A DNA stretch of 64,000 nucleotides from Candidatus Multiplicimicrobium inquinatum (GTDB lineage: Bacteria; Omnitrophota; Omnitrophia; Omnitrophales; Aquincolibacteriaceae), in contig DDUN01000003.1 of NCBI GenBank assembly GCA_002344825.1, positions 1,775 through 65,774 on the forward strand, in the 5' to 3' direction. The position numbers were made by a program, and so were the translations under genes. Of the stretch, positions 2,232-63,630 are shown in pieces (the stretch's first letter is position 1; each line of letters starts with the position of its first letter). The notes below the pieces were generated by a model. That model did not search any database, was not told the origin of the DNA, and saw nothing but the letters and a program-made list of their open reading frames with translations.

Positions 2232-2902
2232 AATTTCTTTGCGAAAAATTAAATTGTGGCTTCAGAGAAAAGCAGGTTTTAAAAAATATTTCCGGTAAAT
2301 TCGAAGCCGGAAAAATAACAGCGATATTGGGTCCTAACGGGTGCGGCAAATCAACTTGGATCAGAGCTTTGTTGGGATTGGTCAAACTCCAATCAGGTAA
2401 GGTTATTGGGTTGCCTGAAAAAAAAGGGTATTTGCCTCAAAAAAAGGAAATTTACTGGCCGCTTACTTGTGAAGCAATTGTGGAGTTGGGTTCTCGCGCC
2501 TCGGGGCTCGGGGCTTCGTCTCTGGATCGGTTGGGGATTGGGCACTTGAAAGATAAAAGAATCGATGAAGTTTCAGGAGGCGAGCGCACCTTGGTTTTAT
2601 TGGCGCGAGCTTTGCGTGATAGACCCGACTTGATTATCGCGGACGAGCCTGTTGCTGAACTTGACCCTAAGCATCAGATGCGTGTGATGCAGGCGCTCAA
2701 AGAGGAAGCCGCTCGCGGTGCGGCGGTGATTGTTACGATGCATGACATTCAGTTGACTGCTCAATTTGCCGATTTTGTTTTCTTAATGCGTGATGGGAAT
2801 GTTGTTTTTCAAGGCGCTCCTGATGCAGTTCTTAATCCCGGGAATTTAAAAACTGTTTTTGGAGTTATTTTTGTTGAAGACAAAGGATTGTATGTCCGTT
2901 AA
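2228..2902 (+). CDS. btuD: ABC transporter ATP-binding protein (BtuD-like)
   Basis: Walker A GPNGCGKST, ABC signature VSGGERTLVLLARAL, Walker B LIIADEP. Confidence 0.85.
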   Translation: MKFLCEKLNCGFREKQVLKNISGKFEAGKITAILGPNGCGKSTWIRALLGLVKLQSGKVIGLPEKKGYLPQKKEIYWPLTCEAIVELGSRASGLGASSLDRLGIGHLKDKRIDEVSGGERTLVLLARALRDRPDLIIADEPVAELDPKHQMRVMQALKEEAARGAAVIVTMHDIQLTAQFADFVFLMRDGNVVFQGAPDAVLNPGNLKTVFGVIFVEDKGLYVR

Positions 2903-3482
2903 AAATTTGAAAACGAAAGCGCGCGATCAAGCTCCGCGGAAGCACGCTAAGCCGAAGCGCGCACCTGATAAAGGACTTATTGTCGTTTATACGGGAGATG
3001 GAAAAGGTAAGACCACCGCGGCGATGGGAACCGCGTTGCGGGCTTTGGGTTATGGTATGAAAGTGGCGGTGGTTCAATTCATTAAGGGAACCTGGCCGTC
3101 AGGGGAAGAACAAGCTCTTAAAAAAATAAAGGGATGTCAGTTTCACAAAATGGGCGAAGGCTTTACTTGGGATACAAAAGACTTTGAGCGCGACAAGTTG
3201 AAAGCGGATGAAGGTTGGAAGTTAGCTCAAAAGTATATTCAAGACTCAAAGACACAGCTTGTTATTCTGGATGAAATTAATTGCTGTTTAAAGTATGGTT
3301 TTCTTGATTTGAAAGACATGTTGCGCGCCCTGAAAAAAAAGCCTCACATGAAGCACGTGTTTTTGACCGGGCGCGGAGCGCCTAAAAAACTGATCGAATT
3401 AGCCGATCTTGTAACGGAAATGAAATGTATCAAACACCCATACGATAAAGGAATTTGGGCTCAGCGCGGCATCGACTTTTGA
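2892..3482 (+). CDS. cobO: Cob(I)yrinic acid a,c-diamide adenosyltransferase (CobO/BtuR/CobA family)
   Basis: P-loop YTGDGKGKTTAAMG, ~196 aa from the ATG at 2892. The longest ORF begins at 2859, so the start is uncertain. Confidence 0.75.
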   Translation: MSVKNLKTKARDQAPRKHAKPKRAPDKGLIVVYTGDGKGKTTAAMGTALRALGYGMKVAVVQFIKGTWPSGEEQALKKIKGCQFHKMGEGFTWDTKDFERDKLKADEGWKLAQKYIQDSKTQLVILDEINCCLKYGFLDLKDMLRALKKKPHMKHVFLTGRGAPKKLIELADLVTEMKCIKHPYDKGIWAQRGIDF

Positions 3483-3489
3483 AAATTTA

Positions 3490-3601
3490 TTGAAAATGAT
3501 TTGTCTGCTTCGTTGCATTCTTCGCTTCCTTGTGCGGCGTATTGCTGCATACGCCTCCGCAGGCGCTCAAATGCGCCTTGCATCCAAACCATTTTGAATA
3601 A
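3490..3601. repeat. REP-like large imperfect palindrome, copy 1 of 3
   Basis: Conserved core cttgtgcggcgtaT-tgctgc-Atacgcctccgcagg with self-complementary outer arms (ttgaaaatgatttg … caaaccattttgaa). Located at the 3' end of cobO. Confidence 0.75.
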
Positions 3602-3637
3602 ATTTTTGAGATTCCAAAGAGCTGGTTTTGGAATGAA

Positions 3638-3931
3638 TCAGCGAAAACTGATTTTGATTTGTGGTTTGTCCCAATAAGGGCAATGACGACAGCCTTGGTT
3701 GCAGCAAAAACCACGGTCTAAAAGATAGTATTCGGTGTGGACCGTCATCTGTGTGAATGGATCTTCGTAAGTTTTTAATTTTGCTGCGCAAGCTTTGAGA
3801 TGAGCCGCGACAGTTTCCGCAGGTAAATTTGGTTCACGGGAAGTCATATCAGAATTATACTCGTCAAAGTTCATCGGAGTAGAGCAAAGTTTCTCTGTTA
3901 TTGGAAGTATCCCCGACATAAAATAAAGCAT
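3638..3931 (-). CDS. Small cysteine-rich protein of unknown function
   Basis: ORF of 97 aa with the cluster CCNQGCRHCPYW. Its start overlaps the start of the divergent gene at 3930, so the true start may be an internal Met (MNFDEY…). Confidence 0.4.
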   Translation of the reverse strand: MLYFMSGILPITEKLCSTPMNFDEYNSDMTSREPNLPAETVAAHLKACAAKLKTYEDPFTQMTVHTEYYLLDRGFCCNQGCRHCPYWDKPQIKISFR

Positions 3932-7526: not shown

Positions 7527-7829
7527 TTGTCGGTGGTCTGGCCTCTGATCTATACTCTGATTATGAGTGATCCATTCAATGGTGAAGAAATCCAGTTTCC
7601 GGTGGTATGCTATTTTAAGATCATTGCCGATAATATGCCGGGCGTTCGAATGATGCTTGAAAAAAAACTGCAGGACTTGGGCGTTGTAAATCCCTTGTCA
7701 GAGGGAACTCATTCTTCGGGCAATAAGTATGTGACTTATAACCTTGAAGTCAAAGTTGCCAGCAAGGAATATATGGCCCAGCTGGATCACGCTATCCGCA
7801 CCACCAAGCATGTTCGTATGGTGCTGTAA
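7527..7829 (+). CDS. YbeD/DUF493-family small protein
   Basis: About 100 aa; FPVVCYFKIIADNMPGV… resembles the UPF0250/YbeD family. Confidence 0.5.
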   Translation: MSVVWPLIYTLIMSDPFNGEEIQFPVVCYFKIIADNMPGVRMMLEKKLQDLGVVNPLSEGTHSSGNKYVTYNLEVKVASKEYMAQLDHAIRTTKHVRMVL

Positions 7830-7949
7830 TTCGCTGAAAAAGCTTCGTCTGCGTCGTTGCATGCGCATTCGCTTGTGCGGCGTAGGTTTCACTACGCCTC
7901 CGCACTCACTTCCATGCGCCTAGCAGCCCAAGCTTTTTGATCGAATTAA
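7828..7949. repeat. REP-like large imperfect palindrome, copy 2 of 3
   Basis: Core cttgtgcggcgtaGgtttcaCtacgcctccgcac, with outer arms taattcgctgaaaaagctt … aagctttttgatcgaatta. Located at the 3' end of the YbeD-like gene. Confidence 0.75.
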
Positions 7950-8007
7950 GAAGAGAAATTAAAATTTCAAGTGGCGCGGGGACCTATTCGGTTTGTTTTT
8001 GGCTAGT

Positions 8008-61021: not shown

Positions 61022-61441
61022 ATGCCTTTTAAGAAGCCCGAGAACCGACGTAAACATGCTCGTGTTGCCTTGTGCCGGCTCGTAAAAATTCAGACTGAAA
61101 AGAGCACCGGACCTTCTGAGATTTCTCAAACGTATGACCTTTCCGAAGCCGGAATGCGTTTTCACGTAACAGATATTTCAAGTACCGGTTTTAAATTCAG
61201 TCTGCCGGCCATTGAGGGCGATTTACCGTTTGCCAGCTTAAAAAAGGGCGACAAGCTTCATTTCCGCATTAATTTGGATCCGGATCACCCCGAGGTTGCT
61301 TTGCTTGGAAAAGTCGCCTGGGTGTCTCGTGAGGCCGTTTCCGGCGGCATGATCCGGGTTAGATCAGGCGTTGAGTTTGTCAACGTCTCCGACGCTGATC
61401 GGAAACTGATACAAGTCTACGTTTCTGCTTTTCAAAAATAG
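61022..61441 (+). CDS. PilZ-domain protein (c-di-GMP receptor)
   Basis: RxxxR motif NRRKHARV and D/NxSxxG motif YDLSEAGMRF. Confidence 0.65.
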   Translation: MPFKKPENRRKHARVALCRLVKIQTEKSTGPSEISQTYDLSEAGMRFHVTDISSTGFKFSLPAIEGDLPFASLKKGDKLHFRINLDPDHPEVALLGKVAWVSREAVSGGMIRVRSGVEFVNVSDADRKLIQVYVSAFQK

Positions 61442-61656: not shown

Positions 61657-62982
61657 ATGTTTCGTCAAAAATGGAAGACAGGGGTGTTTTTTGCTCTGTC
61701 TTTGTTCGCTTCTCGTTTTGCTTTCGCGGAGGAAATTCAGATTGATACCGGAACAACAGCTTGGATGCTTACTTCCACCGCACTTGTCTTGTTGATGGTG
61801 CCGGGCTTAGCGCTTTTTTATGCCGGACTGGTGCGCACAAAGAATGTGTTAGCCACCATGATGCATAGTTTTGCCGCTATGGCGATTGTCGGAGTGCTTT
61901 GGGTTGTATGCGGTTATGCGTTAGCATTCGGCCCGAATGTTCTTGGCGGATGGATCGGCTGGAACCCGCAACTGCTTTTTTTAAAGGGGATTGATGAAAC
62001 CATTATGAGCGCGGGTGTCCCCGAATATGTATTTGCCATGTTTCAGGGAAAGTTTGCGATTATCACTCCGGCGCTGATCGCGGGCGCTTTTGCCGAGCGC
62101 GTTAAATTTAAGGGTTATTGCATTTACATTACCCTTTGGATTCTTTTGATTTATTGCCCCGTATGTCATTGGGTTTGGGCGTCAGATGGGTATTTATTTA
62201 ATTTGGGGGCAAAAGGTGCGATTGACTTCGCGGGCGGAACTGTGGTGCATATCACCGCGGGTGTTTCAGCTCTTGTGGCCGCGCTTTATTTAGGCGCACG
62301 TAAAGGTTACCCGCTCACGGCCATGCATCCGAACAATTTGGTTATGACGATGCTTGGTGCCGGATTACTTTGGGTGGGCTGGTTTGGATTTAACGCCGGC
62401 AGCTCGATTGCCAGCAACTTGGATACGGCGCGCGCTTTGACGGTCACGCAAGCCGCCGCCGCGGCCGGAGCTCTTTCCTGGATGCTAATTGAAGGTGTGA
62501 AGCATGGCAAAGCAACCAGTCTTGGTTTTTCGAGCGGTATTTTGGCCGGTCTTGTTGCGATTACGCCTGCGGCCGGAGTGGTGACTCCGATGGGCGCGAT
62601 CATCCTTGGTTTTCTGGCTTCCTTTGTTTGCTATATCTCAATCGGAATCAAAACAAAATTGGGGTATGACGATAGTTTAGACGTATTCGGCATTCATGGG
62701 ATGGCGGGTATTTTTGGCGCGATTGGCTTGGTTTTTTTCATTCGACCATCGTGGATGGCGGACGCGGCTTCAATTAAAGAGGGTTGGAATATGATGAGTC
62801 AGCTGTTGGTTCAACTTCAGGCTGTGGGCATTACCATCTTGTATGCCGGTGTTGCTTCTTTCATTTTAGTTGTGTTCGTTGATAAGGTTTTTGGTTTTCG
62901 TGCGAATCGCCGTGAGGAAATGGCGGGTCTTGATGAAACGATGCACGGTGAACAAGGCTATGGCCTTATTAACCTGAATTAA
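61657..62982 (+). CDS. amtB: Ammonium transporter (Amt family)
   Basis: Signal peptide plus 11 TMs; conserved …DFAGGTVVHITAG… and GFNAGS motifs. Confidence 0.9.
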   Translation: MFRQKWKTGVFFALSLFASRFAFAEEIQIDTGTTAWMLTSTALVLLMVPGLALFYAGLVRTKNVLATMMHSFAAMAIVGVLWVVCGYALAFGPNVLGGWIGWNPQLLFLKGIDETIMSAGVPEYVFAMFQGKFAIITPALIAGAFAERVKFKGYCIYITLWILLIYCPVCHWVWASDGYLFNLGAKGAIDFAGGTVVHITAGVSALVAALYLGARKGYPLTAMHPNNLVMTMLGAGLLWVGWFGFNAGSSIASNLDTARALTVTQAAAAAGALSWMLIEGVKHGKATSLGFSSGILAGLVAITPAAGVVTPMGAIILGFLASFVCYISIGIKTKLGYDDSLDVFGIHGMAGIFGAIGLVFFIRPSWMADAASIKEGWNMMSQLLVQLQAVGITILYAGVASFILVVFVDKVFGFRANRREEMAGLDETMHGEQGYGLINLN

Positions 62983-62999: not shown

Positions 63000-63341
63000 A
63001 TGAAATTGATTACAGCTATTATTCAGCCCGATAAATTGGATGAAGTCCGTGAAGCCTTGCATGCCGCGGAGATTACGCGCGTGACCGTGAGCCGCTGCAC
63101 CGGCCGCGGCCATCAGGCGGGTGAAGAGCTTTATCGCGGACAATCCGTGGTGCCGACTTTGATTCCTAAGGTGCGCATTGATATTGCGTGCAATGAGGAA
63201 TATGTCGATGCCGCGATTAACGCGATTTTAAAATCAGCGCGTCATGGTGACGGCAAAATCGGTGACGGTAAGATTTTTGTGACCGCGCTGGAGCGTTGCA
63301 TTCGTATCCGCACCGGCGAATCCGGCGGTGTTGCGATCTAA
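63000..63341 (+). CDS. glnK: Nitrogen regulatory protein P-II (GlnK type, linked to amtB)
   Basis: MKLITAIIQPDKLDEVREAL…TGRGHQAGEELYRGQ (T-loop Tyr) …GDGKIFVT. Confidence 0.9.
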   Translation: MKLITAIIQPDKLDEVREALHAAEITRVTVSRCTGRGHQAGEELYRGQSVVPTLIPKVRIDIACNEEYVDAAINAILKSARHGDGKIGDGKIFVTALERCIRIRTGESGGVAI

Positions 63342-63461
63342 AACGGCTGAAATGGTCTTATCGCGGCGTTGCAAGCTTCGCGACATTTGTGCGGCGTAGG
63401 TTTCACTACGCCTCCGCAGTCGCTTACTTGCGCCTTGCGATAAGACCATTTGAACCGTTTT
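63340..63461. repeat. REP-like large imperfect palindrome, copy 3 of 3
   Basis: Core tttgtgcggcgtaGgtttcaCtacgcctccgcag with long outer arms aaaacggctgaaatggtcttatcgc … gcgataagaccatttgaaccgtttt. Located at the 3' end of glnK. Confidence 0.8.
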
Positions 63462-63630
63462 GGTGAACAATCCCAACTCCTGCTTTTTCTTCTATAACTT
63501 GTAGCCGCTCTCTTTCTTTGATCGATTGTAAACTCTCGGTTGGTTTGAGTCGATAATCTGACATCATTTATTCACTGTCGAATTGTTTAATACCTTTTGA
63601 AAGAAGATTTGTATGAGCTTAAAAAAAATA

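Follow-up and report, generated by a model that had tools for sequence, protein, structure and literature searches.

Three long hairpins that begin directly at gene ends in the 64,000-nt stretch of DNA analysed here (the window) belong to a dispersed family of palindromic repeats with relatives in more than ten phyla. We put the chances at about even (a probability of roughly 0.5) that the element is an ERIC/REP-like dispersed palindrome that is co-transcribed with its upstream gene and acts in cis on the mRNA of that gene. New here are the cross-phylum extent of the family, a structure backed by covariation, a tight register with stop codons, selection at orthologous sites and a paradox concerning which strand folds.

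The pattern TGTGCGGCGTA-N8-TACGCCTCCGCA has exactly three matches in the window, all on the + strand, with none expected (100 shuffles); with an N9 spacer it has no match in the window. All three copies share this exact 31-nt core, in which the N8 spacer consists of one covarying base pair and a 6-nt loop. The arms are 25–27 nt long, 85–92% complementary and separated by 70–72 nt; as in other window-type copies, the 5′ arm carries an A-run and the 3′ arm a T-run (Table 1). A covariance model run over the whole window with filters off recovered only these three copies, scoring 108–122 bits on the + strand and 18–25 bits on the − strand. Exact core matches, hairpins and covariance model matches therefore confirm the three copies reported by the first-pass annotation, which placed them correctly but drew their extents slightly too narrowly and, although right about a shared core, miscounted the spacer as N7. 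A possible fourth copy at 61091–61204 is a chance inverted repeat within a coding region and was not recovered by the covariance model. Elsewhere in the window, a perfect 30-nt inverted repeat at 404–506 (AGAACCAAGAACTAAGAACCAAGAACCAAG and its complement, 26 nt apart) lies in the first ~35 codons of a periplasmic binding-protein gene (394–1260). The left arm corresponds to the charged N-region of an apparent signal peptide and the right arm to its hydrophobic core; the element model score of the repeat, 23.6 bits, is that of a generic hairpin only.

The Pfam matches of the CobO, DUF493 and P-II proteins extend to their natural C termini, and the corresponding stop codons (3480–3482, 7827–7829 and 63339–63341, respectively) adjoin or overlap the first paired bases of the hairpins, as expected from the annotated position of the copies directly after the cobO, YbeD-like and glnK stops. 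In copy 1 the last base of the stop codon is the first paired base of the hairpin, in copy 2 the TAA of the DUF493 gene lies within the basal stem, and in copy 3 the glnK TAA is itself paired in the basal stem.

Table 1. The three hairpin copies in the window, their apical cores and the genes that precede them
Feature	Position	Strand	Description
Copy 1	3482..3606	+	Imperfect hairpin of ~125 nt; inverted repeat arms 3482-3508 / 3580-3606; covariance model match 3480-3610, 121.7 bits; RNA fold z-score -4.5
Copy 1 apical core	3531..3561	+	TGTGCGGCGTA-TTGCTGCA-TACGCCTCCGCA; closing pair T-A; exact pattern match
Copy 2	7827..7948	+	Hairpin; inverted repeat arms 7827-7852 / 7923-7948; covariance model match 7824-7953, 115.5 bits; RNA fold z-score -4.0
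Copy 2 apical core	7874..7904	+	Closing pair G-C; exact pattern match
Copy 3	63339..63463	+	Hairpin; inverted repeat arms 63340-63364 / 63437-63461; covariance model match 63336-63467, 108 bits; RNA fold z-score -9.0
Copy 3 apical core	63388..63418	+	Closing pair G-C; exact pattern match
cobO (ATP:corrinoid adenosyltransferase)	2859..3482	+	PF02572, E 2.7e-68, profile 2-172 of 172, match reaches last residue; upstream of copy 1
DUF493 (YbeD-like) gene	7527..7829	+	PF04359, E 4.5e-10, profile 2-84 of 84; upstream of copy 2
glnK (P-II)	63000..63341	+	PF00543; upstream of copy 3
amtB	61657..62982		PF00909; precedes glnK

Pairing in the family is strongly maintained. In a covariation test on 38 window-type copies, using a 42-pair rod, 500 shuffles and slid partners, 87.5% of cells were paired, compared with 69% after shuffling and 31–49% with slid partners, and there were 305 double-change cells, compared with 98 after shuffling (0 of 500 shuffles reached the observed value) and 70–119 with slid partners. 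Compensatory changes were found at 32 of the 42 pairs, and all four Watson–Crick pair types occur at each position of the basal stem. An independent set of copies, anchored on the arms, yielded 730 double-change cells against 211 after shuffling (0 of 500). The proposal that these are copies of a REP/MITE-like dispersed palindromic family whose pairing is under selection is thus borne out by covariation in two independently gathered sets. The difference in the core between T…A in copy 1 and G…C in copies 2 and 3, on which that proposal had leaned, is a genuine family-wide covarying pair (GC 19, UA 9 and CG 9 in 38 relatives). A conserved small ORF on either strand is incompatible with all four Watson–Crick pair types at stem positions.

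The element also has a defined size. Pairing frequency drops steeply beyond −50 and +46 from the core, hairpin boundaries cluster at −48 to −50 and +44 to +47, and all covariance model matches are full length (129–135 nt), so that size and fold fall within the range of ERIC-like elements (100–200 bp, non-coding, long stem-loop). Arms are alike within lineages, for example among the Binatia copies and in several metagenomic sub-families. Direct repeats at the hairpin boundaries were no commoner than in shuffled pairings, which gives no sign of a target-site duplication, and TA was seen on the 5′ side only, because of the stop codons, with none at the 3′ end; old copies could have lost a short duplication. 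Given the fixed boundaries, full-length matches, lineage-shared arms and lack of a target-site duplication, we regard the outer arms as diverged, compensated parts of a fixed-length element, and abandon the earlier suggestion that they arose through insertion or co-option of local sequence. Nested insertions occur in some copies: one of ~120 nt lies near the tip in locus L023 (3927–4179), and an ~18-nt GCCTGCCCTCGAAGGAGG insertion recurs just 5′ of the core in loci L037 (153–300 and 451–597) and L047 (695–839).

Sub-families differ in both their apical and their basal modules. Geobacter-type copies (type B) have the inner stem and core of the window type, with the A-run and T-run exchanged between the arms. 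A metagenome scan anchored on the arm motif ATCTGC-NN-CGTTGC ... GCGCCTTGCATC returned at least 121 copies, and the exact core occurs in none of those listed; an ultra-conserved core across phyla is therefore rejected as an artefact of core-based search design. Arm-anchored copies carry covarying apical stems (GCGACGTAC..GTACGTCTC, GCAGCGTAC..GTACGCTTC and GCGGCGCAC..GTGCGCCTC), some have quite different tips and still match the model end to end, and the genome loci also hold model matches with diverged cores. Several irregular motifs are conserved, namely tandem UC/UC loops (GA/GA on the complement), CGUUGC opposite GCGCCUUG, a U.G pair and, on the 3′ side, ACGCCUC with a bulge.

A scan for the core pattern with one genome per species found at least 112 loci with at least 117 copies, which together with the at least 121 metagenomic copies define the known extent of the family. 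Taxa among the core matches listed are Geobacter, Trichlorobacter and other Desulfuromonadales, Omnitrophota, Planctomycetia, Auribacterota, Binatia, Bdellovibrionota, Gemmatimonadota, Nitrospirae, Acidobacteriota, Myxococcota and Balneolaceae; the element has no match among viral contigs or plasmids. Searches against Rfam 15 returned nothing at the elements in the window at the gathering score, nothing around copies 1 and 2 at E values of up to 10, and nothing in 18 related loci spanning all sub-types. A literature search by sequence string produced matches to sequencing adaptors only.

Part of the family has been recorded before. The G. metallireducens genome paper lists Gmet_R1001–R1024 as ‘predicted short RNA elements’ (Aklujkar et al. 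2009, Additional file 4; PMC2700814), an intergenic repeat of ~110 nt with a central palindrome GRCGTAGCGCTGCTACGCC flanked by CTTTTCCGCAATCTC...GCCTTGAYCTTGCGAAAAA. That list holds 24 copies from one genus and a few relatives, which are said to lie 5′ of downstream genes, and the account gives no structure, function, relationship to stop codons or wider distribution (PMC2700814); our literature search found the Gmet_R10xx loci mentioned in no other paper. Judged by sequence, the window copies and the Gmet_R10xx elements are the same family: the window cores (GGCGTA-N8-TACGCC) agree with the published central palindrome, the supplement alignment rows for Gmet_R1004 and R1005 match type B copies, and a covariance model built from window-type copies scores Geobacter copies at 40–78 bits. 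Both occur in intergenic regions and inside operons, as in dapAB-[element]-dapL, whereas the window copies represent another arm sub-type (GAAAAAGG...CATCTGC...) in what is probably an Omnitrophota relative. The first-pass annotation had held that novelty would be low if the family were already described or if covariation failed to support it; the earlier listing in G. metallireducens (PMC2700814) does lower the novelty, yet the covariation is very strong.

Placement relative to genes is unusually precise. A same-strand ORF of at least 80 codons has its stop ending 40–59 nt before the core in 80 of the 120 matches listed, and in 55 of these the distance is 45–49 nt; the reverse-orientation control gave 11 of 120 among the matches listed, without a peak. 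The corresponding figures for the arm-anchored set are 42 of 104 against 11 of 108 in reverse, again among the matches listed. About two thirds of the copies listed thus lie within a few bases of the stop of a co-oriented gene, often inside operons. In model coordinates the stop mostly starts at position 1–2 and the basal stem at position 5, and sub-families have a stop codon of their own within the 5′ consensus (TGAYGGYTTCG..., TAGCAGGCTG... and TAGGAAACGG...). Next to Geobacter-type copies TAG makes up 57% of stops, compared with 23% in a crude background, and TGA is depleted (P = 4e-7). Stop read-through or recoding of the SECIS/PYLIS kind was rejected, as all three stop codons occur and the frames through the window copies differ (by eye), and a sigma-54 promoter in the 3′ arm was rejected because the spacing is wrong (by eye).

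The genes upstream are diverse housekeeping genes (GroES five times, NifH four times, ThiC and PurH three times each; 124 Pfam families among the matches listed), and many copies occur per genome, after unrelated genes. At least 47 of the 120 matches listed lie between co-directional genes, for example groES and groEL, and the next start codon is often 40–100 nt past the core. A convergent gene pair at locus L054 is followed by two elements, one after each gene and each co-oriented with its gene. One Binatia locus (L096) has a copy beside a non-protein gene: the element at 531–660 (−) runs opposite to an RNase P RNA gene at 662–1018 (+; RF00010, 292 bits) and abuts its 5′ end, and another copy is found at a distance of 180 nt.

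Orthologous sites reveal turnover. Behind cobO, the element is present in the window, in L113 (CobO 83% identical to that of the window), where the basal stem is different and fully compensated, and in L112 from Planctomycetia (CobO ~62–72% identical). It is degraded in L116 (72%), in which only the left arm persists, broken by other repeats, and L114 (74%) and L118–L120 (77–80%) have unrelated hairpins or other palindromic repeats instead. At the DUF493 site of L116 the element is absent, its position being taken by a short GC hairpin between T and A runs. Filled and empty orthologous sites, a criterion for MITEs, are therefore found at both the cobO and the DUF493 sites. Judged by CobO homologues and shared gene order, the window organism is probably close to Omnitrophota represented by metagenome-assembled genomes. 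The post-cobO spacer of Omnitrophota relatives is a hotspot for hairpin repeats, and other widespread palindromic families (GTCATTCCCGCGAAGGCGGGAATCCAG, GTCATTGCGAGCCGAAGGCG and CCTGCCTGCCGGCAGGCAGG) occur in it in L114 (2570–2610) and L116 (2655–2780). In L120 an unrelated hairpin of ~100 nt (1568–1672; arms TCAGAGATCAAA and TTTGATCTCTGA) begins right after the cobO stop and ends in TTTTTGAG, which suggests a common niche taken up by different hairpin families. All relatives have a small conserved DUF5522 gene, of ~69 aa, that converges on cobO (L118, 1713–1922; L119, 1656–1865; L120, 1690–1899); in the window this gene lies at 3638–3931 (−), so that the variable hairpin region is the interval between the cobO and DUF5522 stop codons.

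Constraint is evident at groES-[element]-groEL. Across five Geobacteraceae, whose loci had been selected for an intact core, this copy is 85% identical and its arms alone 82%, whereas four-fold degenerate sites in the same genomes are 50% identical in groES and 59% in groEL. Because this conservation is far above that of synonymous sites, we conclude that the groES-groEL copy is under purifying selection at the level of the host. The spacer between the element and groEL (48–50 nt) is poorly conserved except for the ribosome-binding site, and no conserved antisense promoter was found in it. Three Geobacteraceae have a second, diverged element in much the same place, several hundred nucleotides past groEL (L036, 5454–5580; L056, 7562–7686; L080, 7819–7944); the core of the L036 copy has compensated changes (GCGACATAC...GTATGTCTC). 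Taken together, the tight stop register and the groES-groEL conservation are evidence that the element probably does something.

Which strand folds is less straightforward. Where the element sits and how it is oriented link it to the sense strand, but in 198 of 213 copies it is the complementary strand that has the better fold, by 8–10 kcal/mol on average with RNA parameters and by ~4 kcal/mol with DNA parameters, which makes it doubtful that the sense RNA is the folded molecule. The groES-groEL copies reach about −40 kcal/mol in the sense orientation (z −2.6) and about −67 kcal/mol as the complement (z −8.1), where many G.U pairs form; the three window copies show little asymmetry. At mostly Watson–Crick positions, A.C outnumbers G.U among the sense-strand exceptions (65/28, 270/106 and 178/63 in three alignments), and pyrimidine–pyrimidine outnumbers purine–purine; a helix of sense-strand RNA would predict the reverse spectrum. 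This mismatch bias is weaker in per-column sign tests, and inherited motifs, among them the tandem UC/UC loops, contribute part of the signal. The sense strand of the element is pyrimidine-rich, with C exceeding G in 97% of copies. The + strand of the window has more G than C overall (skew +0.15) and carries 44 of the 48 long ORFs; this skew and the extreme gene-strand bias suggest that the window is part of a single replichore with + as the leading strand. GC content across 1–64000 is 41.6%, and T exceeds A.

If the element is a cis-acting palindrome, as we propose, it would form the 3′ UTR or intercistronic spacer of the upstream gene, co-transcription being expected because copies start on the stop of a co-oriented gene or at most a few bases from it. 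It may then govern the fate of the upstream mRNA through protection of the 3′ end, processing, or attenuation between cistrons. This action may further be coupled to translation, since a ribosome terminating at the stop would have to melt the basal 10–15 nt of the stem and so free the 3′ arm; the putative ribosome-coupled step is modelled on B-oriented, stop-adjacent ERICs (PMC2229807) and on REPs that supply stop codons (PMC3733652). The family probably spread as non-autonomous mobile DNA, with individual copies subsequently kept by host-level selection. Better folding of the complement and the excess of A.C over G.U exceptions on the sense strand speak against a cis-acting RNA, and the surplus of TAG and deficit of TGA beside Geobacter-type copies have no explanation in the model. 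As for a mobilising enzyme, clustering of all ORFs in the at least 112 loci gave no protein family that recurs in the flanks, only orthologous loci such as groES-groEL, and tblastn searches of 1.6 Mb of flanks for Y1/RAYT proteins, using approximate IS200 TnpA and E. coli RayT queries, gave a best E value of 0.18.

The strand paradox leaves room for other readings. It is possible, if unlikely, that the family is essentially selfish REPIN-like mobile DNA, in which selection acts on a hairpin that the complementary (template) strand forms as single-stranded DNA and that a structure-specific HUH/Y1-type or recombinase-type enzyme recognizes; stop adjacency and orientation would then mark only the insertions that hosts tolerate, with the weakly folding, pyrimidine-rich strand ending up in mRNA. 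Better folding of the complement, on which mismatches are of the wobble type, is what this predicts, and sub-families with arms shared inside lineages, presence and absence at orthologous sites and a patchy, phylum-crossing distribution fit as well; REPINs are themselves long hairpins that persist vertically (bioRxiv 10.1101/2021.07.10.451892). Set against this are the missing target-site duplication, the lack of matches in viral contigs or plasmids and the failure of the approximate tblastn queries to find a transposase or RAYT in the flanks of copies. An enzyme that acts on DNA cannot sense phasing to in-frame stop codons, the groES-groEL conservation argues for a host-level function and, where genes run in the direction of replication as in the window, the complement would be the leading-strand template and presumably rarely single-stranded. 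We are more doubtful that the element represents a new class of gene-end element altogether, distinct from both REP-like stabilisers and ordinary mobile DNA: a structure of fixed length, folded on the mRNA-complementary strand, with its anchor at gene ends across more than ten phyla and a stop register that would reflect an undescribed link to translation termination. This could take the form of an attC-like dispersed site for structure-specific recombination or mobilisation, or of an antisense-strand RNA module.

It seems distinctly unlikely that the element is a new cis-regulatory class of structured RNA, perhaps read from the antisense strand, in which a fixed-length rod with conserved non-Watson–Crick motifs is recognized, or measured as by a ruler, by a dedicated RNA-binding protein or RNase. 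The constant length despite free sequence variation, the conserved irregular motifs (tandem UC/UC, CGUUGC opposite GCGCCUUG, U.G and the bulged ACGCCUC) and purifying selection on arm sequence beyond pairing alone are all consistent with such recognition, but the partner protein is hypothetical, apical and basal modules each vary by sub-family, the spacer before groEL has no conserved antisense promoter and many copies per genome follow unrelated genes. A family of intrinsic, possibly bidirectional, transcription terminators, a role also raised by the first-pass annotation, is highly improbable. The A-run and T-run of window-type arms, the hairpin with T and A runs at the DUF493 site of L116 and the copies that lie between convergent genes would suit a terminator; however, the T-run is itself paired and followed by another stem, a terminator scan calls none at the window copies, type B copies have the runs reversed with the T-run in the 5′ arm, and the copies between co-directional genes counted above include groES-groEL. 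Hardly credible is an origin as integron attC sites or gene-cassette remnants: although these too are imperfect palindromes of a similar size range that start at the stop of the upstream ORF and fold better as the complement, the element has no RYYYAAC or GTTRRRY boxes at its ends, its end sequences vary, its conservation is apical and central rather than terminal, and its copies are dispersed after core housekeeping genes without forming arrays.

The family is abundant in bacteria of sediment, groundwater and sludge, including the model organisms Geobacter sulfurreducens and G. metallireducens, and sits inside central operons such as groESL, nifH, dapAB-dapL and nuo, yet is missing from Rfam. 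Should its action be coupled to translation, the gating of mRNA structure by terminating ribosomes could be tested on a natural system with many copies in many phyla; should the complement be the active strand, it would point to a DNA-level or antisense mechanism so far undescribed in repeats of this kind. Modelling of the family, for example as an Rfam entry, would prevent mis-annotation of copies as short ORFs in metagenome-assembled genomes and avoid confusion in operon and terminator prediction.

Several known repeats resemble the element in part. Integron attC sites are structure-defined imperfect palindromes that extend from the stop of a cassette ORF, and their bottom strand is the active folded strand; the present element differs in having no R″/R′ core sites, array or integrase context, and in following housekeeping genes. 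Correia (NEMIS) elements of Neisseria are palindromic MITEs of ~100–155 bp that are likewise co-transcribed, and their hairpins are processed by RNase III (PMC2229807); their conserved 24-bp terminal inverted repeats, TA duplication, and IHF and promoter motifs were not seen here. REP and BIME sequences are also extragenic palindromes at gene 3′ ends, REPINs are also hairpins of ~100 nt with maintained pairing, and by eye the apical hairpin is similar to the stem of the E. coli REP (GCGGCGT...ACGCC). REP ends can provide the stop codon of a neighbouring gene (PMC3733652). The present unit differs in being a single 125-nt hairpin with one central core, not a 20–40-nt palindrome or doublet, and in that approximate queries found no RAYT in the flanks searched. 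The signal for a GTAG tag is weak and varies: TAG has a G before it in 17 of 41 cases of set 1 and 2 of 11 of set 2, and many copies follow TAA or TGA.

The 127-bp ERIC (IRU) and the YPAL sequences are, like the element, non-coding imperfect palindromes of ~125–170 bp that are co-transcribed with flanking genes and can form long RNA hairpins. ERIC copies beside or overlapping stop codons reportedly have a preferred orientation, a finding of De Gregorio from 2005. The action proposed for ERIC is a ribosome-dependent unfolding that exposes an RNase E site (PMC2229807). The present element has no sequence similarity to ERIC and neither a TA target duplication nor a 3′ TA; its stop-codon placement is much tighter, its distribution crosses phyla and its complement is the better folder. 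As a dispersed bacterial palindromic repeat it belongs to a kind of element that is already known, with a placement that is unusually precise.
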